Translations under genes and position numbers: made by a program | In this document: positions 10,010-30,810 of the stretch, one piece after another | Layout: every line of letters begins with the position of its first letter | Position numbering within the stretch: position 1 is the first letter of the stretch | Assembly (NCBI GenBank): GCA_002269645.1 | Contig: NIVC01002328.1 | Coordinates: 1 to 56,970 of the forward strand | Direction of reading: 5' to 3' | Source of the DNA: Macrostomum lignano | Lineage: Eukaryota | Length of the DNA: 56,970 nt | Notes under the pieces: model-generated | The model's input: the letters and a program-made list of their open reading frames with translations, nothing else | The model's database searches: none | What the model was told of the DNA's origin: nothing

Positions 10010-12058
10010 TTATATTTGAGTAGGAGGTTTTTCCAAATAAGCAGTAGAGGGAAAAACATAACCAAACGACGTACTACCACATACAACTGCACCACGAATA
10101 AAATGTGCAGCATCCGCTCCACCAGTTCGAGCGCCAAAACCCATAAGGGTTCCAGATTTATCTAAAGTTCCCCAAGTTCCACTATCATATGTGAAAACGT
10201 TCTGTCCAATGAGGGTAAAAGAATCACCAGCAACATTGTATGACTGTAATCGGTACCAAACCCTTTGATTTAAAATATTAACTTCAAATAAATGCCAATC
10301 GCCGTTATCAATATTAGCATAGGCTACAGTTTGATCCGCATCACTACTAACATCGTTACGAACCGTAGATCCGTCTGATTTTTTATTACTCCAAACAACT
10401 CCAAACCTATCAGTCCACTCACTAGCAAACACTATCAGCCCGGCGTCGGTTGATAATCCAGTTCCAAATTCCGATGTTGGACGTTGGTGACAGTATGCAT
10501 AAAACCAAACCGCATCTGCACCATCTCCTGTAGCATTAGCAACTCGGAAAAAGAAAGACGCAGATATATTTTGAAAATGTGTGAAATTGAATTGTAAAGC
10601 ACCACTTACTCCAGAAGTTTCACGAGTAATTCTAGCGCCGTTTTGATAATCGATATAAGAAGCATCGCTAATTAAAGAACCGACTGGATATATATCTCCG
10701 GCGGTTGTTGGATTTTGATATCCAGACCAATTGCAAATTACTGGTTCGAACAAGGCCGCATCAATAGCAGGTATTCCATCCAATTTATTTTTATCGCTTC
10801 CAGACATTCTACCATTTGATGTTGGAGTAGCTAGCTGATCTACGTACGCTCGCGGAACTGCAGAAAGTATTTGAGTTGGCCAATTAAGATCTTGAATTTC
10901 AACACGGTGTTCAAATAATTGTATTTGACGAACCTCGATAGGTTGTGTACCGGTACCACCAGTTGGGAAGAATACGCTATAATATTTCCAAAAATTAGTC
11001 GTTAAATTAGATAGAGCAAATGATGTTGCTTGAACTGGTGATCCCGACGTAGTTAATGTCGTCCATGAATCGGTAGCAACATTTTTTGCGCGAACCGACC
11101 ACCCCGAGGGTATCTCAATTGTTTCACTGCCTGTAATTCTTAATTCAAATATTCTTCTATTATAACCTAAAAATTCAAATTGAATTTCCATATTGGTTGT
11201 GGTTCCGGTATTTGGTGACCATTGCGTCGCAAGGCTTCCATCTCCAACTCGAAAAGCTGTGTTGCCATTTTCAGATGCTGTAAGAACAACATCAGGATTT
11301 GAAGTATTTGATGTAAGCGGCGTGGTAAAAATATCGGCGTCAGTTGCATTAGCTCGCTCGTTTACTTGGCCTAGAGTTACCGAGTCTGCATTCTCTGTTC
11401 CAAATAATAAATTTGTTAATTTAAAATTATTCATATTAATATTACCACTACGAGTGGCAACTTGATTATCGACATAGTTCTTATCAACCACTGAATCACT
11501 AGTTGTAATTGAAACATTTATAATTCGGTTGTTGCTCATATCTAGGTTTCCGGTTGCGGTGGTTTGAACATAACGTGAATCAGAATCAGTTCGAGAATAA
11601 GAATCAGTTACATCTCTTTTTAAATTTAATCCATTATCAACTTCGGTTTTGGTATAAGAATCGGCTACGTTCCGTTTCAAATTTAATGAATTATCAACTT
11701 CGGTTTTGGTATAAGAATCGGCTACGTTCCGTTTCAAATTTAATGAATTATCAACCTCTGTTTTGGTATAGGAATCGGCTGTATTGCGTTTCAGATTTAG
11801 TGAATTATCAACTTCGGTTTTGGTATAGGAATCGGCTACGTTCCGTTTCAGATTTAGTGAATCATCGATTTGAGTTTTGGTATAGGAATCTGCAACGTTT
11901 CTTTTTAAATTTAATTTATTATCAATATCAGTTTTTTTATAACCTTCATCCTCATTAATATATCGATTATCTCCGAATGTAACACTGATGCCACCAGATG
12001 TGCCACCGCCACCACTACTTGTTGTTCCGTTCCATGAGGGTGTTCCAGAAAATAACAT
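10010..12058 (-). CDS. Fibre/spike receptor-binding protein (682 aa)
   Basis: Six 19-aa YTKTEVDNSLNLKRNVADS repeats; LDMSNNRIINV..KNYVD shaft motifs; discoidin-like domain; ATPTSNGRMSGSDKNKLDGI; C-terminal L-lectin/ConA-like domain. Confidence 0.75.
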   Translation of the reverse strand: MLFSGTPSWNGTTSSGGGGTSGGISVTFGDNRYINEDEGYKKTDIDNKLNLKRNVADSYTKTQIDDSLNLKRNVADSYTKTEVDNSLNLKRNTADSYTKTEVDNSLNLKRNVADSYTKTEVDNSLNLKRNVADSYTKTEVDNGLNLKRDVTDSYSRTDSDSRYVQTTATGNLDMSNNRIINVSITTSDSVVDKNYVDNQVATRSGNINMNNFKLTNLLFGTENADSVTLGQVNERANATDADIFTTPLTSNTSNPDVVLTASENGNTAFRVGDGSLATQWSPNTGTTTNMEIQFEFLGYNRRIFELRITGSETIEIPSGWSVRAKNVATDSWTTLTTSGSPVQATSFALSNLTTNFWKYYSVFFPTGGTGTQPIEVRQIQLFEHRVEIQDLNWPTQILSAVPRAYVDQLATPTSNGRMSGSDKNKLDGIPAIDAALFEPVICNWSGYQNPTTAGDIYPVGSLISDASYIDYQNGARITRETSGVSGALQFNFTHFQNISASFFFRVANATGDGADAVWFYAYCHQRPTSEFGTGLSTDAGLIVFASEWTDRFGVVWSNKKSDGSTVRNDVSSDADQTVAYANIDNGDWHLFEVNILNQRVWYRLQSYNVAGDSFTLIGQNVFTYDSGTWGTLDKSGTLMGFGARTGGADAAHFIRGAVVCGSTSFGYVFPSTAYLEKPPTQI

Positions 12059-12068
12059 TTTTTACTGT

Positions 12069-12686
12069 CTATTTTATAGAATCTAAAATACCCCTAAAGT
12101 CTTCGGGTCTTTCCTTCGAGTTATTAATTTTATATAAAAAATACAACGCCGCTTGCCCGCAATAACTTTTGTCAAAGGTTTGAAATTGTTCGTGATAATC
12201 TCCACATAAACGATTTTTAGTATGATTAAATTTATCTTTTATTTCCTGTAACGGAGGAAGCGCGTATGAATCAAAAAAATAAACAAGTTTTGGTTTTGAA
12301 TAAACTGCTGACCAATGAACACCGTTTTCTTTTGTTGTTTCAATATTAACAATGAAAGATCCATATCTTGGTAAGTCTTTTATCTCATCCCGCATAACAC
12401 ATCTAAATGGTTTTATTTTTAACTGCCGCGCCCAATTTGTTAATTCGATATTGCTTGTTGTGTCTGTTCCATATCGTTGTTTGAATATATGCCAATTCAT
12501 GGTCATTTTATGTTCCTGAAAAACTTTGGTTTTAGTTAGTTTAGTAGGTGTGGGTTTTAACAATTCCTTTCTTATTTTATCAGCTTGTAACTGCCTTAAT
12601 TTTGCTAGTTCTAGTTCGTAATTATCTTCAGCTTTTTTAACTTTTTCTGATTGTTTTTTTAGTAAATTATTATTATTATTACCCAT
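12069..12686 (-). CDS. Adenain-like cysteine maturation protease
   Basis: NGVHWSA (His), YFFDSYA (Asp), QTFDKSYCG (Gln/Cys). Confidence 0.92.
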   Translation of the reverse strand: MGNNNNNLLKKQSEKVKKAEDNYELELAKLRQLQADKIRKELLKPTPTKLTKTKVFQEHKMTMNWHIFKQRYGTDTTSNIELTNWARQLKIKPFRCVMRDEIKDLPRYGSFIVNIETTKENGVHWSAVYSKPKLVYFFDSYALPPLQEIKDKFNHTKNRLCGDYHEQFQTFDKSYCGQAALYFLYKINNSKERPEDFRGILDSIK

Positions 12687-12699
12687 TTTTACTATAGGA

Positions 12700-13485
12700 T
12701 TAAACCTGTTTTATACGTAAAATTACTGTTATTGATTGCCCACCAAAACTTATTAATCTATCGCTTTCATCTACAATCCTAATATAAATTGATTGAATAG
12801 TATATTGATTTAAAGGATAATATATTGGGGTTTGGGGTGCAACAATCATTTTCTCTCCAATTGGAACAGCAAGAAACGGGATTGAATAAATAATTCCACG
12901 TTGAACCAAAACCCCATTATCATCTGTTATATAACCGCCGTTTGATATGTCGGTTGTTATATTAATTGTATTAACACCGCCCTCAATGTTTCCCACGGTA
13001 TCACCGGTGCTTGATGCGGTAACTATTCGGGAATTAAATCCAAGTATTGTTCTGAGTGAATTTGCAATTGTAAAATCAACCTGATATCCGGTTCCTAGTG
13101 ATAGGGTGAATCGGCCAGAAGGTAAATCAACGCCAATAACAATCGCGCCCGCTACCCAATCACCATTAGTTGTTAATTCTCCTTCTATATAAGCATTCAA
13201 ATCGGTATAACTATAAGCTCCCGGATTAACGCTAAACGTTGTCCAATTGGCTCCGGAATCTTTAGAATATCTAAATTGATTATTTGTTGCATTAATTAAT
13301 TGAGGCATGTTAAAAACTGAAAACATTATTAAACCAATTTGATAACTTAGGCTTTGATTGAGTTGTAACGGATCGCGCAATATAATCCTTTGTTCGCTGG
13401 TTGTCATTATAAACTGTAGGGTTGTACTAAACTTTGAATTAGTTCGATCTACCAATTGTTTTATAGCGTCTAAATTTGCTGCCAT
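12700..13485 (-). CDS. Minor capsid protein (penton, single jelly roll)
   Basis: Start at TATAAAAATG 13485; N.T..NN.F.YS, PGAYS..DLN, IY.L....I.SI.IRIVDE..R.I.F pattern; position between ATPase and protease. Confidence 0.85.
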   Translation of the reverse strand: MAANLDAIKQLVDRTNSKFSTTLQFIMTTSEQRIILRDPLQLNQSLSYQIGLIMFSVFNMPQLINATNNQFRYSKDSGANWTTFSVNPGAYSYTDLNAYIEGELTTNGDWVAGAIVIGVDLPSGRFTLSLGTGYQVDFTIANSLRTILGFNSRIVTASSTGDTVGNIEGGVNTINITTDISNGGYITDDNGVLVQRGIIYSIPFLAVPIGEKMIVAPQTPIYYPLNQYTIQSIYIRIVDESDRLISFGGQSITVILRIKQV

Positions 13486-13550
13486 TTTTATAGTGGGGAA
13501 TAATAGCATCGGACTTCGTCCGCGAACCATAGGTTCGATCGGCACGCAGA

Positions 13551-14348
13551 CTACGTCTGATCCTCGTCCTCATTATCTTCTTTTATCAAATTTGTTAAGA
13601 TTCGATTTTTTCTTTCTAACCTAGGGTTGATATATATGTGTTTGTATTGACTATCATCCCAAATTTTTTTACACATACTTTTAAATGGTTTTGTATCCAA
13701 CCCAGGATTAAATCTCGCGTGTATATTTTGTAGATCATAGTTATCTAAATCAAACATTACACAACAGCTAGCATTCTTTTTTATAATCGATTCTAATTCT
13801 CTAAAGGATTGAGTAAGATAAAAAGCTCCAATTCCATCTCCTCTACCACTAACAAAAATTTCCTTTTGCAATTCTTGATCTCCATCATTAATACAATCAT
13901 CAAATATAATTAGTGTTTTATCATTTTTTGGGATTTTGTCGTAAGTTAATCGGTTTGATATTGTAATTGTTGGGGGGTTATTGTCCATATTTTCTGGATC
14001 GAACCTTTGGTTCGCGGACTCCGTCCGACCTTCTGCCATTTTTTTACATAAATCCTCAATGTCATTTAGGTTAAATCGCGGGTCATCATCGTCCTCATAT
14101 TGCTCATATGCTCTTAACATTCTAAACAAGATTTCTTTTTTTAATTTGTTTTTTAATCCATGTTTAAGAAATTCATAATATTTTATTCTAGGTTTATTAG
14201 TATAAATTATTAAATTATTATAGTCTAACATTCCATCGGTTGTTAGCAGATCATAAACAAAGTGGGTTTTTCCTTTGCCAGATCCGCCAATTACTAAACA
14301 AAGAAAAGGATCGTTTGGAAATATTTTATTATGTTTTGCTTTTACCAT
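13551..14348 (-). CDS. A32/FtsK-HerA genome packaging ATPase
   Basis: Walker A GGSGKGKT, Walker B LIIFDD, SGRGDGI..FYLTQS. Confidence 0.93.
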   Translation of the reverse strand: MVKAKHNKIFPNDPFLCLVIGGSGKGKTHFVYDLLTTDGMLDYNNLIIYTNKPRIKYYEFLKHGLKNKLKKEILFRMLRAYEQYEDDDDPRFNLNDIEDLCKKMAEGRTESANQRFDPENMDNNPPTITISNRLTYDKIPKNDKTLIIFDDCINDGDQELQKEIFVSGRGDGIGAFYLTQSFRELESIIKKNASCCVMFDLDNYDLQNIHARFNPGLDTKPFKSMCKKIWDDSQYKHIYINPRLERKNRILTNLIKEDNEDEDQT

Positions 14349-14367
14349 TTTTAAATATAAAATTTAA

Positions 14368-15831
14368 CTATTTTTTATCTACTGGTACCTTATTAGCAAC
14401 GGTACCATCTGCTAGAGCATATGCCATATATTCCTCTAGAAGCAATACGTGGGCGTCTAGTGCCTGATTGCCGGTTTTATTAATCTCTAACATATAATTC
14501 AAACCAAGGTTGGCTACATTTTCTTTCTGTGCGGTTAGATCAAAAACAACCACTGGATGAATGTTTAGAAACTCCGTGGGTGTGTACTGAGGAACAGCAT
14601 ACGCTTCATTTTTGACATAATCCTGATAATATTTTATAAAATCATTAACATCATTATTTGCTGTATTTAGATTTAGTACGGTTTTAACTGGATAATATTG
14701 ATCATCAACCTGCAGGCGGATATTCTGAACATTAAACTCGTTAATAGCTGTAACCTCGTTGTCTGTTGCGGTGGCTGCCTGAGCTGCAACGGCTCCTGAT
14801 TGAAGCCAATATAAATCTCCATTTGATCTTTTACTGTTTCTATTTGTTATTTTAAACCATACAAAAATATATCTAGCACGACGTTCTGAAGTAGTTAGCT
14901 GCCACTGGAAATAATCCTGGTTATTATTAATTGTTCGCATAAAGTGCCGCCGATTCAAATAAAAGATTTCCTGATCGCGCATTATCTGCTTATTTATGTA
15001 TTCTAATAGCGGTGCCGTTACCTCGAATTTTGGGACGACTAATTGAATTGATGCTATACGAATTGCGATATCGGTTGAAATCCTAGGCTGATATCCACCA
15101 GATATTTGCAACTGAATACCAAATTTTAATCCTTTCCATACCCGATTTGGTGAGAAGAACCCAAAGAGCGGAAAGATTGAAAAGTCTTGCTCATATGCCG
15201 TTGCCGTGGTTAATACCGCGACTGGGAATTTATTCTGACGATCTATAAAACCAGTGTTAATATCTTTTGTGTTAGTCATTGCAGTTACAACTGGAACGAT
15301 ATTGGTATTAAGATAAGCTATAAGAGCTGCGGTATCTGCGCCGGCTGCATTTTGTACATTAGGGAAAACTACTGCTTGTCCATTGCCCTTATCCGGCATC
15401 CAACCAACATTATCACCAACCTGTTTTGATAAATAAGTATAATTTAAATGTTTCAAAACTCCATTAATCTCAGCTGGGTTTGTTGATGTCTCAACAACGG
15501 CTCCATTAACTGTTAGTTGAGCTTGGGAAAAACATTTATAAAACCAATCATTTTCTATAATAATTCCAGAACGGTCTGCGATATCACCGGCTACAAGAGC
15601 GGTTCCATCGTTTCTGGTATACAACCATCTAACACGGAAAAAGGCATTTTTAAGATCTAATATGCTGTCGGTTGCCCCAATGTCAAAAGCTACAGTTCCA
15701 GTAGTAAAATTGTTTGAGTTATCACTTGTTGGTAGGGTAGCATTTAAATCTCTTGCCCTGATCTCATTAATATACTGTCGATGCTTTTTAAAATGAAATT
15801 TGTCACTCCATATAGTTTTTGTTTCGGCCAT
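14368..15831 (-). CDS. Double jelly-roll major capsid protein (487 aa)
   Basis: FSQAQLTVNG..VE, RYIFVWF, RLQVDDQYYP, VVFDLT motifs; size and synteny typical of Polinton MCP. Confidence 0.85.
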   Translation of the reverse strand: MAETKTIWSDKFHFKKHRQYINEIRARDLNATLPTSDNSNNFTTGTVAFDIGATDSILDLKNAFFRVRWLYTRNDGTALVAGDIADRSGIIIENDWFYKCFSQAQLTVNGAVVETSTNPAEINGVLKHLNYTYLSKQVGDNVGWMPDKGNGQAVVFPNVQNAAGADTAALIAYLNTNIVPVVTAMTNTKDINTGFIDRQNKFPVAVLTTATAYEQDFSIFPLFGFFSPNRVWKGLKFGIQLQISGGYQPRISTDIAIRIASIQLVVPKFEVTAPLLEYINKQIMRDQEIFYLNRRHFMRTINNNQDYFQWQLTTSERRARYIFVWFKITNRNSKRSNGDLYWLQSGAVAAQAATATDNEVTAINEFNVQNIRLQVDDQYYPVKTVLNLNTANNDVNDFIKYYQDYVKNEAYAVPQYTPTEFLNIHPVVVFDLTAQKENVANLGLNYMLEINKTGNQALDAHVLLLEEYMAYALADGTVANKVPVDKK

Positions 15832-15865
15832 TTTTTTAAGTTAAAAAAGTTTTTTATATTAAAAA

Positions 15866-16537
15866 ATGAGTCAATTTATGGACGTTGATGGAGAATTAGC
15901 GATTTATAGAGAGAAGCAAAAATATTCTGATTTTGTTAGAAATTTACAAAAAAGAAAGTTAGGAATACAACTAGCTGGTGATAGATTTGCTGCCCCTTTT
16001 GTTAATCCTATTACGGGCAAACTTAGTGAACTAGAAAAAACAGATAAAGATCTTCTTGAAAAAATTGCCAAGAATACCGAGCCAAAAGAGGATGAAATTT
16101 TAGATGAGCCGCCTACTTATGATGTTGATCAAGCCCTATTGAGAGTTGCTGAGATTAGACGTGCAGAACGGGATGGGGTTGTTGAATATCCGAGAGCTGC
16201 ACCACAAAGTATTGCTGTGACAGATTTAGGTAATGATGACTACCGAATTGGTGGGGTTGATAAAAATCGGAATGATCTATATAGAGAACTGGGCGGAGCA
16301 TATAATATTATTATGAACCCGAGGGTAAAGTTTAACCCTGATTTATATACTAGAGATGAATTAGTAAGTGCTAAAATTTTTTACGATGAGTTAGGAGTAA
16401 GAGCTGCTAAAAATACCAGCTTGTATAAAAGGATTGTTGATTCTATAAATAACAAACCGGCGGTTGGTGAAGGATTTAAAACTCCGCGAAAACTTGTTTT
16501 AGCTGCCGCGAAAGCTGCTGGACATACAGGTGTTTAA
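15866..16537 (+). CDS. Conserved Polinton protein ending GEGF...AAGHTGV (223 aa)
   Basis: Intact ORF; orthologue at 22905-23604. Confidence 0.65.
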   Translation: MSQFMDVDGELAIYREKQKYSDFVRNLQKRKLGIQLAGDRFAAPFVNPITGKLSELEKTDKDLLEKIAKNTEPKEDEILDEPPTYDVDQALLRVAEIRRAERDGVVEYPRAAPQSIAVTDLGNDDYRIGGVDKNRNDLYRELGGAYNIIMNPRVKFNPDLYTRDELVSAKIFYDELGVRAAKNTSLYKRIVDSINNKPAVGEGFKTPRKLVLAAAKAAGHTGV

Positions 16538-16557
16538 TTAAATTTATTTTTTATAAA

Positions 16558-17130
16558 ATGAATGAAACAAAAGTTTGTACTAAGTGTAAACAAGAAAAAC
16601 CAATGACTAAAGAATTTTTTTGTTGGAGAAATGATTCAAAAAATTTTAGAAATGAATGTAGATTATGTCATAATACTTCATCAACTATTTGGATGAAAAA
16701 CAATAAAGATAAATGGAATAAATATTGAAAGAATAAATATCACACCGATGAAAATTACAAAACTATTAATTTAATTAGAAATAGAATAAAAAGGTCATTA
16801 TCAACCTTTAATGATAATGATTATATCTCATATCTTGGTTGCACAAAAGAATTCTTTTTTGATTGGCTAAATTTTACAAGAAATTATTATGTGTCAAAAG
16901 ATTATAATGGTGCTTTACATATTGATCATTTCATTCCCGCTTCATCGTTTATTTACAAGGACGAAGATCAGATGAAAAAGTCTGAACATTGGACAAATAA
17001 AAGATACTTAACTAGTGTAGATAATTGCTATAAAAAAGTTAAGCAACCAACCATCGAAGAATTTGCAAAACAATTGGTGCTATCGTGTATTTTTAAGGCT
17101 ATTAAAAATGAGCAATCAATTAGTATTTGA
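16558..17130 (+). CDS. HNH endonuclease with N-terminal Zn finger (190 codons; in-frame TGA at 16726-16728)
   Basis: Manual translation: MNETKVCTKC...CRLC...YLGC...LHIDHFIPAS...HWTNKRYL...DN..K. Confidence 0.8.
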
Positions 17131-18685
17131 AGGAGGATTTTTAGATGTTCAAAAAGGATTAACAAGCTTACCACCAATATTTACTACTGGGAGGTATACG
17201 GGTGAGCTACACCTGCCATCAATGAACTTCACAGGTTATCCCGTGGCCTGAGTGGTAGAAGCAAAGCTACTGCTAGTCACTATTAGTGGCGATGTCTCCA
17301 AATTGCGTGAAACCCGTCATACAGCTTCAAGTACCACTTCAATTGAGAAATCTTTTGAAGGAACAGAGGTAACTCCTCTTCCCAATGGTAAAAAGCTTGA
17401 AGACATGGTGGCAATGCGCAGCCAAGCTCCTAAGTATTTTAAATATAAGGAGAAGGTTCAGAGAGCAGACGGAGATGGGCGGTAATTATCGCCGCTTAAG
17501 GTGTGCTCCAGCCTCATTCGAAAGATTGGGGGTAAACTACCCGGCACTCGTTTGGATTTAAGATTAAATCCTGACAATACTCCAAAAGCTGATTCAATTC
17601 CAATAAATGGGATTGATTGGTTAGCATACTATCACGACTTAGCATATAGAGATGCTGACAAGAACCCTCCCGAAGAAGCGTTAAGATTAAAACATGAAGC
17701 CAATCAAAAAATGATTCAAGGATTAGATAACTTACAAGGCTTATCAGTAGGCCAGAGATTAACTAGGTGGATGGTTAAAAAGATTCTACAATCTAAAGTT
17801 AAATTTGGTTTAGGAATTAATTACAACCAACATGGTAATAATTGTGTCGAATGTTTGTTATTAAGTGGTAGTGGGCTAAGTTATAATAAGGCTAAGGTTC
17901 TTCATAAAGAATACCGAAAACCTAAATTTTATAGAAAAATCATGAACTTCAAAAAGAATGAAATTTGGTATGCTGATTTAATGTCGATGCCAAATGATAA
18001 AGGATATAAATATATTTTAACAATATTAGATGGTTTTACTCGCTACGCGTGGGCTGTTCCTTTAAAATCCAAAAAGGGAGAGGTGGTTGCTAGTGCTTTT
18101 AGAAGCATTGGAGAAAAAAGTGAAAGGTTGTGTGTTGACGAAGGAAAAGAATTTTACAATCCTCACATGTATAAATTGTATCATTTTGAAAAAGGACAAG
18201 AAAGGAAAAAGGACGCGAATGGGGAGTATATTAATAAAATTTATTCTATTTATGGAGAGAGTAAAAACGCATTAATAGAAAGATTTAATAGAACTTTAGG
18301 TAAGAAATTATGGTTTCAGTTTAGTCTTAATGGTAACCAAAAGTGGGTAAAAATATTACCAGACGTAGTGAAAGATTATAACAATTCATATCATTCAGCT
18401 ATAAAGATGACTCCTCAACAAGCTTATAACAATCCTGAAAATGTTAGGGTTACTTTTGGAGAATTTGAAAAAAAGAAAACTAAAGGTTTTAAAGTTGGTG
18501 ATTCTGTTTATATCTATAAATGGAAAGATAAGTTTGAAAAGGGAAGAAAAGGATATTGGAAAATAAGTGAGAAATTTACTATCAGTAAAGTTTTAAATAC
18601 AAATCCCACCACCTATATCATTGCTGATAAGGATGGTGACGAAATATTGGGTTCATTTTATGAAAACCAGCTAATGCCAGCTTAA
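17108..18685 (+). CDS. Parvoviral-type PLA2 fused to RVE integrase; exons 17108-17236 and 17540-18685 (424 aa spliced)
   Basis: Splicing restores NFTG|PGTRL...YYHDLAY; integrase WYADL / CVDEGKEF / IERFNRTL (DDE) and YNNSYHSAIKMTP. Confidence 0.9.
17237..17539 (+). ncRNA. Group IC1 self-splicing intron (303 nt)
   Basis: P AAUUGCGUGAAA, Q AAUGCGCAGC, R GUUCAGAGAGCAG, S AAGGUGUGCUCC; P7 GAGCA/UGCUC; P1 CAGGU/GCCUG with U-G wobble; P3 UGUCUCC/GGAGAUG; P5abc with GAAA loop and A-rich bulge; L9 GAAA. Confidence 0.92.
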
Positions 18686-18695
18686 GTTCAATCCG

Positions 18696-18920
18696 TTACT
18701 TAAGGCAACAAGGTAGTAAATTTTTTATAACAAACAAAAACAATATTATTACTATTATTGTTACTAATATTATTATTGACATTTGTTCAACAGTTATCAA
18801 ACTTAAATTATCATTAAGGTCATTAATTGGTACATTTCCGATATAGGAATAATTTACCTTCATTTTTTTATATATATTTTTAACAATAAATGTTGTTTCT
18901 GTTATAGAGTAATAGTTCAT
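18696..18920 (-). CDS. Small single-TM protein (74 aa)
   Basis: Hydrophobic C-terminal helix; orthologue at 26220-26438. Confidence 0.6.
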   Translation of the reverse strand: MNYYSITETTFIVKNIYKKMKVNYSYIGNVPINDLNDNLSLITVEQMSIIILVTIIVIILFLFVIKNLLPCCLK

Positions 18921-18923
18921 TTT

Positions 18924-19238
18924 TTACATAAAAATTTCAATTTCGCTCTCTGAATCACTAGTTTCATATGAGCTATTTGTTGAGTTTGAATCATCTGAAC
19001 GAACCTCCCAATCATCTGAATTTAAATAATCTCCAAGTTGAAATATTAACTCACCCTCTTGTTCTAGATCATACAACCCATCCAACTCTAACGGATAAAG
19101 TTTTAGTTCATGCTTATCGTCATATTTTAGATAAACTTCATCAATTATTCCATTCAAAATATGCTGTTTTATTATCTCTGAATTTTTAGCAACAGTCTCA
19201 AAAGTATCACTAATTGAAAAGGTGTAAACGCGGTTCAT
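18924..19238 (-). CDS. Small acidic hypothetical protein (104 aa)
   Basis: ATG at the inner edge of the TIR; near-identical orthologue at 26395-26709. Confidence 0.65.
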   Translation of the reverse strand: MNRVYTFSISDTFETVAKNSEIIKQHILNGIIDEVYLKYDDKHELKLYPLELDGLYDLEQEGELIFQLGDYLNSDDWEVRSDDSNSTNSSYETSDSESEIEIFM

Positions 19239-19600
19239 TTTTAGTAACAGAAAAAGACCCTACGCGCCTGCGGCGCGGCCTGGGGTTATAAAGTAGTAGT
19301 AGGTAAAAGTACGCTTCTAGATCAGACCTATTGAAAATGATGATTGAAGGGCTATTAATGGGGGGACGCGAGGGGATTGTTATTGATGATTTGGGAGTGT
19401 TATTGGTGATTTGGGAGAGTTAGTGGTGATTTGTGTTGTTTTGTGGTGTTGGGGGTGTTGGTGGGAGGTAGTGTGTTTAAGGGGGGTAAAGGGTGTTTAG
19501 ATGTGTTTTTTTAGTACCCCCTCGTGTCCCCCCACTAGCCCTTCAAATCAGCATGTTAAATAGGGGTTCTGGGGCTAGAAGCGTACTTTTACCTACTACT
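19237..19600 (-). repeat. Right terminal inverted repeat of Polinton copy 1
   Basis: Reverse complement of 2067-2430; ends CCTACTACT. Confidence 0.95.
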
Positions 19601-22904: not shown

Positions 22905-23604
22905 ATGAGTCAATTTATGGATATTGGTGGAGAAATGGCTCTTTATAAAGCTAATAAAAATATTGGATTTTGTTAGAGATTAAAAAAAAGAAAGTTGGGT
23001 TTCGAAATAGCTGGTGAGAAATTTGCTGCTCCTTTTGTTAATCCAATTGTTGGGAAAATTGGTGATCTAACACAAACTTTTGGAACTTTTGAAAAACTTT
23101 TGGAAAAGATTGCTGAGAATACAACTCCAAAAGAGAATGATGGTGTTGATATAGAGGATGAGCCGCCTGTTTATGAGGTGGATCAAGCAATATTGCGAGT
23201 TGCAGAGATTAGGAGGCAAGAAGTGGGCGATCGGGAAGATTTTCCGAGCGGTTCCGCAAAGTATTTCTGTGACAGAATTGCCTAATGATAATTTTCAAAT
23301 TGGCAGGACTGTAAAAAACAGGAATGAACTATATCGGGATTTAGGTGGGGCATTTAATATTGTTACAAATCCTAGAGTAAAGTTTAATCCTGATTTATAT
23401 GACAAAGATGAATTAGTAAGCGCAAAAAAAATTTATGGTGAATTGGGAGAAAGAGCTGTTAAAAACACTAGTTTGTATAAACGTATTGTTAAATCAATAG
23501 AGGCGAAAAGATCCGTTGGATTTAAAACTCCGCGAAAACTTGTTTTGGCTGCTGCTAAAGCTGCTGGACACACTGGTATTAATTATTTTTTTTTAAATGG
23601 ATGA
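22905..23604 (+). pseudogene. Orthologue of 15866-16537
   Basis: FKTPRKLVLAAAKAAGHTG shared. Confidence 0.85.
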
Positions 23605-24683
23605 TACGATAAAGTCCTGTCTTTGTAAACCCATTGATTATAAAACTGGATGTGATAGAATATTGAATAAAATATTTCAAGATGAATTAATAATTGCAAA
23701 TCGTATTAAAACGATTCAGATGCATCTTGGATCTCTTTATGAAGGCTACCGGACATTTGCCCTCCGGCATTTGCCCTCCGGACATTTGCCCTCCGGCATT
23801 TCCCCTCCGGACATTTGCCCTCGAGGACATTTGCCCTCGGGGACATTTGCCCTCCGGACATTTGCCCTCCGGACATTTGCCCTCCGGACATTTCCCCTCT
23901 GGAAAAGTACAGGTAAGGCTGGGGATAGGGTAGGGCGCGGGTATATATTGCTTACTAGAAAAGGATGAGTTGTTGGCTGGAGAAGAACCTGATGGATGCA
24001 AGAGGCGGGAGGATGAGGTTGGTGCTGGAGGAACGACGGGTGGGTACAGGAGGAGGTGAGGTGAGTAATGTGCGAGGGGGTAAATTTGCAGAGGGCAAAT
24101 GTGCGGAGGGGAAATGTCCGGAGGGCAAATGTCCGGAGGGCAAATGTCCGGAGGGCAAATGTCCCCGAGGGCAAATGTCCCCGAGGGGAAATGTCCGGAG
24201 GGCAAATGTCCGGAGGGGAAATGTCCCGGAGGGCAAATGTCCGGAGGGCAAACGCCGCCGAGGGGAAGTGCCGGAGGGCAAGTGCCGGAGGGGAAGTGCC
24301 GGAGGGCAAATGTCCGGAAGCGCTTTATGAATTATTAGCTATTAAACATTTTGGTTTTGAAAAAGTAAAGAAAATTGATTTAGTACATAATGATCGTAAA
24401 GTTGCGTTAGAGTCGAAATCTTCTGATAATACCGATAGTTCTTCAAGCCGATTTAGAAATATTCAAAAGTTGTTGGAGTTTAAAAATATTAATCCTGAAT
24501 TTGATTTGTATTATTTTTGCATTAATAACACTAAAAACCCAATACAAAAAGAATTTGATAATGCTGTTACCTTTAACTGGGGAATTTGCTTTAATTTTTT
24601 TGTATGGTGATAAATATTTGGAAATTATTAAATTGATAGAAGATTGTTTTTTAAGCATTAAAAATGAACTAAATTGTGTATGA
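23597..24683 (+). pseudogene. PD-(D/E)xK restriction-like endonuclease (Eco47II-like), interrupted by a MITE and a frameshift near 24570
   Basis: After removing the MITE: IQMHLGSLYELLAIKHFGFEKVKKIDLVHNDRKVALESKSSDNTDSSSSRFRNIQKL...LTGEFALIFLYG; family assignment is from motif recall (ExKxxxNTxxSSS). Confidence 0.62.
23744..24322. mobile_element. Foldback/MULE-type MITE (579 bp) with 9-bp TSD
   Basis: TSD CTTTATGAA at 23735-23743 and 24323-24331; inverted arms made of 15-bp GGACATTTGCCCTCC tandem units. Confidence 0.9.
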
Positions 24684-26244
24684 AGGTGGATTGTTGGATA
24701 TTCAGAAAGGATTAACAAGCTTACCACCAATATTTACTTGTGGGAAATATACAAATGAATCGCATATTCCGGCTATTCGTTTGCAGGTTACTCGTGGCCT
24801 GAGTGGTAGAAGCAAAGCTACTGCTAGTCACTATTTGTGGCGACACCTTCAAATTGCGTGAAAGCCGTCATACAGCTTCAAGTACCACTTCAATTGAGAA
24901 ATCTTTTAAAGGAACAGAGGTAACTCTCTTCCCACTGGTAAAAAGCTTGAAGACAAGGTGGCAATGCGCAGCCAAGCTCCTAAGTTGATAATTCAGTATG
25001 GAGAAGGTTCAGAGAGCAGACGGAAGTGGATGGTAATTTAGCTACTTAAGGTGTGCTCCAGCCTCTATCGAAAGACAGAGCGTAAACTGCCGGGGACTCG
25101 GTTAGATTTGAGATTAAATCCTGATGACACACCAAAAGCTGATTCAATTCCCATCAACGGTATTGATTGGTTAGCATATTATCATGACTTAGCATACAGA
25201 AATGCCGACAAGAATTCTCCTGAGGAAGCATTAAGATTAAAGCATGAAGCTGATCGAAAGATGATTGAGGGATTAGATAATTTACAGGGATTATCGGTAA
25301 GCCAAAGATTAACTCAATGGGTGGTTAAAAAGATTCTGCAATCTAAAGTTAAATTTGGTTTAGGAATTAATTACAATCAACATGGAAATAATTGTGTTGA
25401 CTGTCTGTTATTACTCATCTGTGGATTAAGTTCTGATGAGGCAAAAACACTTCATAAAGAATACCGAAAACCGAAATTTTACCGAAAAATCATGAACTTC
25501 AAAAAGAATGAAATTTGGTATGCTAACTTAATGTCGATGCCGAATGACAGAGGATATAAGTATATTTTAACTATATTAGATGGTTTTACTCGATATGCGC
25601 GTGGGCTATTCCATTGAAATCCAAAAAAGGTGAAGTTGTTGCTGCTGCTTTTAGAAGTATTGGGGAGAAAAGCGAGCGTTTATGTGTTGATGAAGGAAAA
25701 GAATTTTACAATCCTCATATGTATAAATTATATCATTTTGAGAAAGGAAAAGAAAGGAAAAAGGACGCAAGCGGTGAGTATATCAATAAGATTTATTCTA
25801 TTTATGGCGAAAGCAAAAACGCGTTAATAGAGAGATTTAATAGAACTTTGGGGAAGAAATTGTGGTTTCAGTTCAGTCTTAACGGTAACCAAATGTGGGT
25901 AAAAAATATTACCAGATGTAGTAAAAGATTATAATAATTCATATCATTCGGCGATAAATATGACTCCACAACAAGCTTATAACAATCCTGAAAATGTTAA
26001 AGTTACTTTTAGGGAAGTTGAAAAAAATAAAAAGAAATTTTTTAAAGTTGGTGATCAAGTATATATTTATAAATGGAAAGATAAATTTGAAAAAGGTCGA
26101 AAAGGCAACTGGAAGATTAGTGAGAAATTCATTGTAAGTAAAGTTTTAAATACAAATCCTACAACTTATATCATTGCCGATAAAGATGGTCAAGAAATAT
26201 TAGGATCATTTTATGAGAATCAATTACTTAAGGCAACAAGGTAA
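24664..26244 (+). pseudogene. PLA2-integrase, copy 2 (intron-containing, degraded)
   Basis: Matches 17108-18685; premature TAA at codon 3 and several frameshifts. Confidence 0.88.
24789..25089 (+). ncRNA. Group IC1 intron, copy 2 (301 nt)
   Basis: Same insertion site (GCA GGT|CCG GGG); P/Q/R/S conserved; 11-nt receptor CCUAAG...UAUGG; terminal omega-G at 25089. Confidence 0.92.
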
Positions 26245-28185: not shown

Positions 28186-30810
28186 TCACAGATGCCGCAG
28201 CTCATTCTCCAGGCCGTACATCATCGCTTTGAGCTGTTTAAGCTCGTCGCCCAGCTGCTTAGACCGGCCGGAGGTGGCCCGCACCTCCTTCAACAGGGCC
28301 ATGTCGACGCCGTCGGCACCAACATCGGCGGCCCCGCCGCCGGCTGGACGCAACAGTCGGGCGCCGTTTGTTACGCTGTCGCCCAGTCCGATGGTCAGCT
28401 TGTACAGCTGACGCTCGACGCCGCGCAGCTTCTGTCTGAGCTGTTGAATGTCGGTTTTGAAGCCTTCGACTTCTAGATTGCGCCGACGTTCCAGCTCGGC
28501 GTAGCGCTGGTTCATCAGCTGCAGGCGGCCGCCGATTTTGCTGGCCCGGTCTTTGTAGAGATCGGCGGCCGACTCGCGCTCCTCCCGCAGCCTGCACAGC
28601 TGGTCCTCGGCCTGCACCACCTGCGGTTGGCGGCAGCGGGGTCTGGGGTGTCAGGGAGACCCTCCAACACAATGGTCTGGGGTGTCAGGGGGATCCTCCA
28701 ACACAATGGTCTGGGGTGTCAGGGAGACCCTCCAACACAATGGTCTGGGGTGTCAGGGGGATCCTCCAACACAATGGTCTGGGGTGTCCCCAGACCATAC
28801 ATATCGGCCAGCTCACCTGCTCCCTATACATATCGGCCAGCTCACCTGCTCCCTATACATATCGGCCAGCTCACCTGCTCCCTATACATATCGGCCAGCT
28901 CACCTGCTCCCTATACATATCGGCCAGCTCACCTGCTCCCTATACATATCGGCCAGCTCACCTGCTCCCTATACATATCGGCCAGCTCAGTCTGCTGCTG
29001 CAGCTGATACTCCAAAGTTTTGACCTGCTGTCTCAGTTCGTCAACCACAGCCGACTGCTCAGCTTTGGCCCAGCTGGCCTCAGCCTGTCCGGAGACCAGC
29101 TGCCGCAGGCGCTCCCGCTCAGATGGGGTATTCTGATACCTGGGCCGGCGAGTCTCAATCTCCTGAAGTAGGCGGGCCTTCTCCTGTATCCAGGTCTTCT
29201 CTGCCTGCTTGTGCACTTTGCGCTGCTCCAATAAATCTTTAGTACTGTCTTGCAGCATCTCCTGGGCCCGTTTGAGCTTGTCGGCAAGCTCTTTGATCTT
29301 GTCCTGATCCCGATCCCGGCTGGAATCCGCTTCCATTGCGCGAATACGCCGGTCCTCCATTAGTGCGTTAACCTGCGGGATTGTGTGGGAGTTTAACATG
29401 AGCTTACCAATGACCGGTGCTCACGTGACTACAGAAATTGGTCATGATCGATGCTAATATGACTAGAAATGAGACACGACATGACATTATTTGAAAGCGG
29501 TGCAATGATCACAATTCTGTAATGACATTATTCTAATGACTAGAAAGGGGTGTAATGACCATTATTCTAATGACTAAAAAGGGGTGTAATGAATAAAAAC
29601 ATACAAAAAAGAGAATAGGAACGGACACATAACTAGATCAGAGCCTACAGTAATACAGATAAAAGAAGCAGACCCCACTCACTCACCTGCTCCTTAGACA
29701 GTTTAGCCTGCTCCTCCAGCTGGCTCTGCAGCGAGTGCAGCTGCAGCCGGAGCGAGTCGCACTCCCTCAGCACAGCTTCGTGCTCCAACGCTGGCACAGT
29801 TTTGCGCAACGCTTCAGGCAACGCCTGAGCAGCGCGTAGCAACTGCGGATTAGCCGACTTAGCGGCCTGTTGCACCTGGCCGGGCAGTTTCTGGGGCACA
29901 ACGGCCACGTCTGGCGGCTCCTTGAGGAAATAAGTGACTTCGCTGTCGCTAACGCCGGAAATTTGCAACAGATGGGCCATCTTCTTTCTATCTTGCAGCT
30001 CTTTGATCTTCAATCGGTCATTCTCGGCGTATAGGCGAAGTACTTGGTCGCGCTCCTTGAGGGGGAAATAAGGCAAGTTTTGTTTTATACTACTGAGTGG
30101 AGTAATCAGTAGTAACTATAGAATTGAGTTTTTCAAATTAAATTGTGCCCAAATATGATTATTGAATGCCGAAAGTACAAAGCATTTTTAGATGCATGAA
30201 AGTTGCATCCTCCAGACGGACTCCCTTGAGCAGGCACAAAAGCGCGTGGATACGTATGCAGTCAAACGCACAGACACACACTCACACAGGAGTGTACAGC
30301 GGCCCTAACTTTCGGTCATGTGAGAAGCTTATAGTTATCGTGAAAGTGATTAACGCCATTGCCTCTTACCTGGAATAGGTACACCTGCAGATCAGACAGG
30401 GCCTTCTGCAGTTCGGCAATCTCGTCCTCGCGCTGGCGCAGCTCCCACTGCAGCCGGTGCTGGTCGCCGCAGGCGGCACTAAATTCCTGCAGCCGATGCT
30501 CCAGCTGCTGATGATCGGCATCGAGGTCTTGAACTTTCCGCCTGTAGTAATCCAGCAGCTCCTTGGACGGCTGCATCAGGGCCAGACGGGCACCGAGATC
30601 GTCGCGCGGCGTCGGAGACTGACGGCCGTGACTAGCTGACGCTGTCGGCGCCGGTTGCGTTGGCGCCGACGAAGTTGGAGCGGTTTGTGCGCCGCTGCTA
30701 CTGGCGCCACGCTTTGATGTCGCCGCAGGAGTTTGGCGCGTTGACGGCTTCACCGACCGCCTGTTTGGCGCCTGCGCCTGCTGTTTCTGCTTGGTCTGTT
30801 CAGGCAGCAA
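28186..30810 (-). CDS. CCDC77: Coiled-coil domain-containing protein 77; exons approx. 30810-30370, 30055-29687, 29372-28962, 28620-28186 (start codon not fixed)
   Basis: PSKELLDYYRRK, QREDEIAELQKALSDLQVYLFQ|ERDQVLRLYAENDRLKIKEL, LERRRNLEVEGFKTDI, YGLENELRHL match CCDC77; GT-AG junctions join in frame. Confidence 0.92.
28641..28790. repeat. Intronic minisatellite, 35-bp unit
   Basis: GGTCTGGGGTGTCAGGGxGAxCCTCCAACACAAT, about 4 copies. Confidence 0.92.
28797..28989. repeat. 29-bp tandem repeat containing the CCDC77 splice donor
   Basis: TATACATATCGGCCAGCTCACCTGCTCCC, about 6.5 copies. Confidence 0.93.

Follow-up and report, generated by a model that had tools for sequence, protein, structure and literature searches.

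The 303-nt insert at positions 17237-17539 (forward strand) of the DNA analysed here, a stretch of 56,970 nt from Macrostomum lignano that we refer to as the window, is almost certainly a group I intron in animal nuclear DNA. It is an ORF-less intron of what we call type A, has an IC1-like periphery, terminates in an A at 17539, and is located in a Polinton, within its PLA2-integrase gene. We consider it likely that a mobile group I intron of the giant-virus type has homed into the last GGNCC site of its element and protects it. Beyond the preliminary description of this DNA, the analysis brought to light the terminal A, an Eco47II-like nuclease in related copies, and the absence of GGNCC from both Polintons of the window.

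Results

Identification of the intron and its host gene

When the region was scanned alone, it matched the full-length RF00028 model with 63.1 bits (E 7e-16; cut-off 50), and hence the assignment to group I introns proposed previously is confirmed by a covariance model. Two larger Rfam scans, one covering the whole window and the other 9.5 kb, returned no RF00028 match at 17237-17539; these misses look like filter losses. The same cut-off was passed by 11 of 18 other type-A or type-C loci and by the type-B locus L072. A second type-A copy within the window (24789..25089, + strand), which is 301 nt long, ends in G and is located in a decayed Polinton, scored 53.5 bits.

The intron contains in-frame stops, and its GC content is 46% as compared with 33% for the whole Polinton. 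As stated in the preliminary description, removal of the 303 nt restores the sequence NFTG-PGTRL in frame. Exon 1 (17108..17236, +; 43 codons) ends with NFTG at the glycine of the Gly-Pro of the PLA2 motif, and exon 2 (17540..18685, +) starts with PGTRL, is open over 381 codons and encodes the remainder of the PLA2-like domain and the rve integrase. In-frame read-through at the intron position was also found in natural intron-less alleles at seven of 20 fetched loci (L064-66, L069-71, L073). A spliceosomal intron was rejected as a candidate since the donor-like sites at 17202 and 17235, when combined with the last YAG at 17511, shift the frame.

The intron-less L064 protein is a 424-aa fusion of a PLA2-like domain (PF08398, 31.6 bits, cut-off 23.9) and an rve integrase. 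A comparison of the PLA2 domain with PDB sequences gave nothing significant, and no relative of the PLA2 part was found in IMG/VR. The first in-frame ATG of exon 2 (17711) is located upstream of the complete rve domain, and there is no ATG between the last in-frame stop of the intron and codon 58 of exon 2. The 57 exon-2 codons that precede this ATG exhibit a pN/pS of 0.07 (41 of 44 loci kept), with no difference between A-ending and G-ending copies. Synonymous divergence of the exons amounts to 0.3 versus an intron divergence of 0.04, and near-identical introns reside in diverged exon alleles, as expected after a homing sweep. Because exon diversity is far older than intron diversity, the constraint reflected by pN/pS may predate the intron. 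Exon 1 is open and in frame in most copies, even in those with insertions of 30 or 60 nt. Such palindromic in-frame insertions of 30 (or 60) nt were seen at the start of exon 1 and within P5abc (L004-L007, L019, L046-L050, L076), and they may be comparable to mobile palindromic coding repeats, which they resemble.

Intron types and their distribution

Exact-pattern searches of the genome yielded 114 type-A cores, 24 type-C cores and three intron-less family-A junctions, which means that intron-bearing alleles of family A (114 plus 24) outnumber intron-less ones. No intron-less allele with the exon-1 type of the 17237-17539 copy was found. In a separate genome search with RF00028, 28 places were scored, all of them above the cut-off. 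Ten of these places were fetched and belong, together with L072, to a second Polinton family (57% at the amino acid level) with a type-B intron. Among these 11 inspected copies, L089 is truncated at its 5' end. Type-B introns comprise 836-895 nt (nine delimited copies), possess a P7 of the canonical type, end in G, and contain a 156-aa ORF in the loop of P2.1. Because this loop measures only 3 nt in type A, the latter looks like an ORF-deleted form.

A terminal A is present in 21 of the top 30 type-A introns and in 28 of 44 distinct loci (two loci were dropped by the parser), while a terminal G was found in the remaining 16 type-A loci, in copy 2, in type B and in L211. Genome-wide, exact patterns matched 70 A-ending and 23 G-ending copies, with the two patterns being unequally degenerate.

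Type C (L062:1126-1480 and L067; 24 genome matches) occupies the same site and shares P2, P2.1 and P5abc with type A (80-83% over nt 10-167). Its P3/P4/P6/P7 core, which we take to be IE-like, differs from that of type A and was missed by the RF00028 scan; the relationship between the two types looks like a core swap. The 3' splice site of type C is ambiguous, and both in-frame choices alter the PLA2 motif. The type-C core was not found in IMG/VR. At G000:C249:319695-320905 it is located approximately 900 nt away from exon 2, which suggests that the intron at this locus has received a large insertion in its 3' part.

L211, an environmental JGI contig (1297 nt), encodes a Polinton-like PLA2-integrase with an intron at the same site that carries the same nuclease in P2.1, a different core and a terminal G. 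Close homologues of this nuclease were found among ENA/JGI proteins (at least 11), and several of them read on into the same ribozyme. The intron/nuclease system thus extends beyond a single species.

The P6-P7 core motif of the flatworm intron is present in 120 or more stretches of IMG/VR, a large number of which are labelled GVMAG, and is shared with giant-virus introns. Among 80 fetched stretches the P7 reads GACUA in 76 and GAGCA in one; a targeted scan revealed the type-A P7 (GAGCA/UGCUC) in two IMG/VR contigs, in one of them within a giant-virus RPB1 gene. In a core tree of 67 distinct sequences from 81 stretches, rDNA introns excluded, types A and B group together (87/98) among giant-virus introns, and p-AU for A, B and L211 is 0.4. 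We do not claim a donor since the backbone of the tree is weak and long branches are present.

Structure of the predicted ribozyme

All helices named in the preliminary description of a Tetrahymena-like core were recovered in 17237-17539, where the set comprises P1, P2, P2.1, P3, P4 (UGCGUG/UGCGCA), P5abc with its GAAA loop and A-rich bulge, P6, P7, P8, P9.0, and P9 with a GAAA loop. P1 (17232..17250, +) is formed by exon CAGGU and the internal guide at 17246-17250, with a U-G pair at the 5' splice site, and P10 is formed with exon 2. The pair between exon and internal guide covaries in type C (A-U to G-C). P7 (17461..17509, +) consists of 17461-17467 paired with 17504-17509, and the 3' strand of P3 as well as P8 lie in between. 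It was correctly described as GAGCA/UGCUC with a retained G-binding pair, which is G17463-C17508. In Tetrahymena numbering, G262-C312 of the flatworm intron replaces the C-G pair of Tetrahymena, a difference that counts against IC1. J8/7 (17498-17503) reads UAAGGUG and displays an A-to-G change at a position which in Tetrahymena is joined in a base triple to the P7 pair that is flipped here; the change in J8/7 and the flipped pair may represent a three-way covariation. The same combination of J8/7 and P7 is also present in the giant-virus loci L098 and L244.

Helices and pattern matches define the 3' part of the intron (17510..17539, +), which comprises P9.0 (17510-11 paired with 17537-38), P9 with its GAAA loop, and a terminal A in place of the conserved omega-G. 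That 17539 is the omega position follows from P9.0 and P10, which fix it there.

To the original classification as IC1 we subscribe in part. P2, P2.1 and P5abc fit, and IC1 is the likely subgroup for type A. However, P9 is followed by just 8 nt, and consequently the P9.1/P9.2 extensions, which are typical of IC1, are absent; moreover, the nearest relatives found, in a comparison made without rDNA introns, are giant-virus introns. We assume that P2, P2.1, a full P5abc and the GAAA/receptor architecture are shared with Tetrahymena-type IC1 rDNA introns. The flatworm intron differs from these by its location in an mRNA, the lack of P9.1/P9.2, the altered P7 and J8/7, and the lack of a His-Cys HEG. 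With regard to the tetraloop receptor, the preliminary description needs a correction: its 3' half reads UAAGG here, whereas copy 2 and type B have the canonical UAUGG.

For comparison among copies, 95 base pairs (P1-P9, P2.1, P5abc, P9.0) were drawn by hand on 17237-17539, which is therefore paired by construction. Among the ungapped cells of the 32 other distinct type-A introns, 2918 out of 3028 (96%) are paired, as opposed to 36-43% with slid partners. Specifically, 2754 cells are unchanged, 94 are changed on one side and 70 on both sides, 110 are broken, and 12 are gaps. Broken cells are found mostly at three positions (the loop end of P2.1, one P5 pair, and the top of P5a). P1, P7 and P6/P6a show no variation in any of the 32 introns, and P2 underwent a compensatory switch of four pairs in 16 of them. 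In the P7 of type B and L211, two pairs are compensated in 10 of 10 introns and a third pair in nine; the G-binding pair is broken in two of the 10. Altogether, four fully paired forms of P7 exist at this site (GAGCA/UGCUC, GACUU/AAGUC, GACUG/CAGUC and GACUA/UAGUC). The minimum-free-energy fold of the intron has a z-score of -2.58 and, as expected, lacks the P3/P7 pseudoknot.

Genomic context

The 17.5-kb Polinton (2067..19600) is bounded by terminal inverted repeats starting AGTAGTAG. Its Polinton/Maverick hallmarks are, besides these repeats and the rve integrase, a pPolB region (4161-7744, +) with interruptions near 4838 and 7007, an A32 ATPase (13551-14348, -), and a double-jelly-roll major capsid protein (14368-15831, -). 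The latter has an Atlas score of 0.98, but its recognition value of 1880 is under the 2300 mark of the tool. A probable protease is encoded at 12069-12686 (-); this label and that of pPolB were assigned from sequence motifs. Both the polymerase and the HNH gene of the element are interrupted. Within the pPolB region (5001-7007) there is an Endonuclease_7 domain of the HNH type (PF02945, E 5e-8), which is reminiscent of pPolB2 with HNH in nematode Polintons (10.1101/2023.08.22.554363). A target-site duplication was not found for 2067-19600; the flanks differ, and the right end abuts the second, decayed Polinton that contains the intron copy 24789-25089. The nuclease gene of this second element is split by a GC-rich element (23745-24320; approximately 0.6 kb) in which 15-nt repeats form inverted arrays.

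The same contig harbours a host CCDC77 gene (28189..30810, -) with four exons at 92-100% identity, the last one matching a UniRef protein labelled Macrostomum lignano with 100% identity, and with GT donors at two of three intron starts. The presence of this gene indicates that the contig is flatworm nuclear DNA. Thus, gene, element and neighbour support the earlier view of a protein-gene intron carried by a Polinton in an animal nuclear genome.

Depletion of GGNCC

In the PLA2 motif, type-A and type-B introns are inserted between the codons for Gly and Pro (GGN|CCN), and the insertion site is therefore necessarily GGNCC. This sequence is absent from the entire Polinton (17,534 nt; shuffle mean 22.6, minimum 9) and from 7,510 nt of the second one (shuffle mean 13.6), and none of 200 shuffles was as low in either case. 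Taken together, no site was found in the two elements where about 36 are expected. Fourteen ORFs (4,478 aa) contain no Gly-Pro dipeptide versus about nine expected, and they have fewer GGNCC sites than 998 of 1000 synonymous shuffles. The intron-less loci L064, L065 and L066 each possess exactly one GGNCC, i.e., the insertion site, and the L064 junction is also the sole GGNCC in the family-A sequence aligned to the element (226 kb, redundant). In family-B loci (14 kb), four sites were counted versus 11-18 expected, and three of the four are the insertion site in intron-less alleles. By contrast, the host flank keeps GGNCC (51 sites in 30 kb). Giant-virus intron loci (60 kb) are not depleted (80 vs 85.5), and a milder depletion (18 vs 33) was noted in 10 pooled giant-virus loci with distant Eco47II-like genes. 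Elsewhere in the motif counts for 2067-27110, CCNGG is under-represented, though not absent (10 vs 21; 4 vs 13), and GCNGC is over-represented (40 vs 15).

Associated nucleases

An Eco47II-like nuclease ORF resides inside P2.1 of type B and L211. The type-B ORF matches PF09553 (Eco47II) with E 1.3e-5 and 25.3 bits, just under the cut-off of 25.9. Its structural model (pLDDT 91.7) has EcoO109I as top fold match (E 1.4e-4), with DdmD, Ecl18kI and AvaII also near the top. A free-standing gene for an Eco47II-like PD-(D/E)xK nuclease, split by the inserted repeat, is located upstream of copy 2 (23597..24610, +); its pieces show 59% and 61% identity to the intron-encoded ORF of L072. In the genome, 108 matches to this nuclease were obtained, a number that refers to pieces rather than copies. 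Among 31 giant-virus loci with distant Eco47II-like genes, none matched the intron-core pattern, and BLAST searches against phages gave just weak matches (16-26% coverage).

A nuclease gene is located directly upstream in all 44 distinct type-A loci (PD-(D/E)xK in 11, HNH in 32, an unlabelled HNH-like gene in one). The gene preceding 17237-17539 (16558..17133, +) codes for a free-standing HNH-like endonuclease, although in this copy a stop at 16726-16728 disrupts it. The HNH label was assigned by us from the motif and is presumptive; a Pfam search with the gene gave no match. The homologue of this gene in L064 is intact and shows 30% identity over 112 aa (E 5e-12) with an ORF contained in the giant-virus group I intron L136.

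A homologue of Eco47II recognises GGNCC (PMC12376442). By analogy with such restriction-enzyme relatives we infer that the Eco47II-like nuclease cuts GGNCC, and a partnership of nuclease and intron directed at GGNCC is highly probable. Host DNA would be endangered as well by a nuclease with a 5-bp site; silencing outside the replicative phase or sensitivity to methylation might protect the host, both of which are guesses.

Evidence on splicing

Contigs with depths of 5-15 cross both intron junctions in unspliced form (X10 record 12, 17126-17574; X1 record 1; X5 records 26 and 28). A spliced joint was not detected in four runs, of which three are guessed to be RNA and one is probably DNA, and in which contigs drop rare forms, depth is low and more than 100 loci are pooled. 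No RNA run is listed as containing the stretch. The hexacoral ND5-717 intron, likewise an animal group I intron without omega-G, splices inefficiently, with ligated exons being formed in vivo while more than 70% remains unspliced (PMC6545197). Slow splicing of A-ending copies is thus compatible with the unspliced contigs. ND5-717 differs from the flatworm intron in that it is mitochondrial, fixed and obligatory, whereas the latter is nuclear-integrated, optional and polymorphic. In view of the terminal A and the lack of a spliced joint, the designation as self-splicing in the preliminary description is best taken as a prediction. We expect with considerable confidence that members of the intron family are spliced at some stage in the life of the element; as to whether the A-ending copy 17237-17539 itself yields some ligated exons, we regard the chances as evenly balanced.

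Discussion

In our model, flatworm Polintons carry the intron in their PLA2-integrase gene, and it belongs to a family common in giant viruses. The element would have purged GGNCC, avoiding even Gly-Pro dipeptides, except where the PLA2 motif forces the site. By breaking this last site the intron would render its element immune to the nuclease, while intron-less elements would be cut and then either converted by homing or excluded during co-replication. A nuclease with a short site may thus have become a homing or exclusion nuclease by the element's removal of all other targets. The ORF-less intron 17237-17539 would rely on a nuclease acting in trans or on that of the adjacent cassette, in a kind of collaborative homing. 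The ribozyme is predicted to excise itself from the mRNA in the usual G-dependent manner, in two steps, which would still allow PLA2-integrase to be made, and A-ending copies such as the present one are probably slow in the second step. Site protection implies that the Gly-Pro of PLA2 matters and hence that the intron must be spliced. In its most far-reaching form the proposal reads as follows: an active self-splicing intron in animal nuclear mRNA, present in more than 100 copies, was spread by a 5-bp cutter made specific by site purge, with the intron as immunity determinant, ribozyme cores swapping on one peripheral scaffold, and the terminal-A majority being functional. We put this combination forward tentatively, at slightly less than an even chance.

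Part of this model would fail if the A-ending lineage were a relic that no longer splices, with integrase being made from the internal ATG at 17711, the intron persisting only because it destroys the nuclease site, and PLA2 being either not required or provided by copies that end in G or lack the intron. The terminal A, the consistently unspliced contigs and the position of that ATG upstream of the whole rve domain are in line with this possibility. It is nevertheless unlikely because none of the 32 type-A introns compared shows a change in the core helices, the reading frame of exon 1 is preserved despite insertions of 30 or 60 nt, and pN/pS of the PLA2 part is equal in A-ending and G-ending copies; furthermore, a recoded Gly-Pro or a deletion would be a cheaper way to remove the site. 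Somewhat less improbable, at about one chance in four, is that the nuclease serves exclusion rather than homing, that is, as a weapon against competing Polintons or a helper or host giant virus, and that the intron is mainly an immunity patch spread by linkage. An element-wide purge suits a restriction-like weapon with a short site, the nuclease is often free-standing, and a role in competition was proposed for the introns of BsV (PMC5871332). Yet the ORF lies inside the intron in type B and L211, and near-identical introns in diverged exon alleles argue for homing; besides, the two roles are compatible with each other.

That the HNH gene instead of the Eco47II-like gene mobilises type-A introns appears improbable. 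This gene does occupy the upstream position in 33 of 44 type-A loci, 17237-17539 among them, and a relative sits inside a giant-virus intron; however, it also precedes intron-less L064, none was seen inside any intron at the PLA2 site, and the loss of GGNCC would be left unexplained. Finally, contamination or misassembly with DNA from a protist, an alga or a giant virus, a non-animal or contaminant contig having been considered in the preliminary description, has a negligible probability. The intron family is indeed typical of giant viruses, but CCDC77 is present on the same contig and the 114 core matches are spread over many contigs, some exceeding 0.9 Mb. Moreover, the stretch was found in 20 runs from seven studies of one organism, in nine of them with at least half of the words (one of these runs may be the source).

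Several known systems share traits with the flatworm intron. Giant-virus mRNA introns such as those in polr2a/b of Bodo saltans virus (PMC5871332) and in a125l of chlorovirus PBCV-1, a group IB intron (PMC7019647), are likewise inserted at conserved motifs and occur in HEG-bearing and ORF-less forms. The flatworm intron differs from them by its host, an animal-integrated Polinton, by the common terminal A, and by a nuclease that is Eco47II-like instead of HNH, GIY-YIG or LAGLIDADG and whose ORF is placed in P2.1. An ORF-less intron next to a free-standing nuclease is known from psbA of phage S-PM2 with F-CphI, the example of collaborative homing (described by Bonocora and Shub in 2009 and by Zeng in 2009, both as cited in PMC11296320). 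Here a free-standing nuclease likewise occurs, and its intron-encoded state exists too. In contrast to the phage case, the element is eukaryotic, and the predicted 5-bp target would be unique through element-wide avoidance. With respect to fold and family the flatworm nuclease matches the type II enzymes Eco47II, AvaII and EcoO109I. The PD-(D/E)xK homing endonuclease I-Ssp6803I reads a long site. A methyltransferase was not recognised among the genes of the Polinton 2067-19600. No homing or intron nuclease of the Eco47II type was found in the literature searched.

Nuclear group I introns have been stated to occur only in rDNA of microbial eukaryotes (PMC3679873), and in a 2025 database of 42,459 introns animals are represented only by placozoans, corals and sponges, mostly with mitochondrial introns (PMC11835236). 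As regards the novelty claimed in the preliminary description, no report of group I introns in animal nuclear genomes or animal Polintons was found in the papers searched, with the reservation that tables and supplements of PMC11835236 and PMC12220804 could hold animal entries. However, group I introns of protist Polinton-like viruses are already published, with RF00028 matches in Paulinella (53), Desmodesmus (2) and Rhodomonas (44) (PMC12220804). These are also carried by a genome-integrated Polinton-like element, but their hosts are protists, they are associated with a short ORF upstream of MCP, and the text consulted describes no nuclease partnership.

Our study places group I introns in protein genes on the chromosomes of a bilaterian laboratory model. 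Why animal nuclei are devoid of such introns, and whether they splice there, can now be addressed directly. Because homing needs co-replicating elements and the introns resemble those of giant viruses, the finding also bears on a viral phase of animal Polintons or their contact with giant viruses. The natural A/G polymorphism at omega offers a ready comparison for the chemistry of the second splicing step. Free-standing, intron-encoded and lost states of the nuclease all coexist in one genome, and the GGNCC pattern suggests that a restriction enzyme can turn into a homing nuclease via avoidance of its target rather than via longer recognition.
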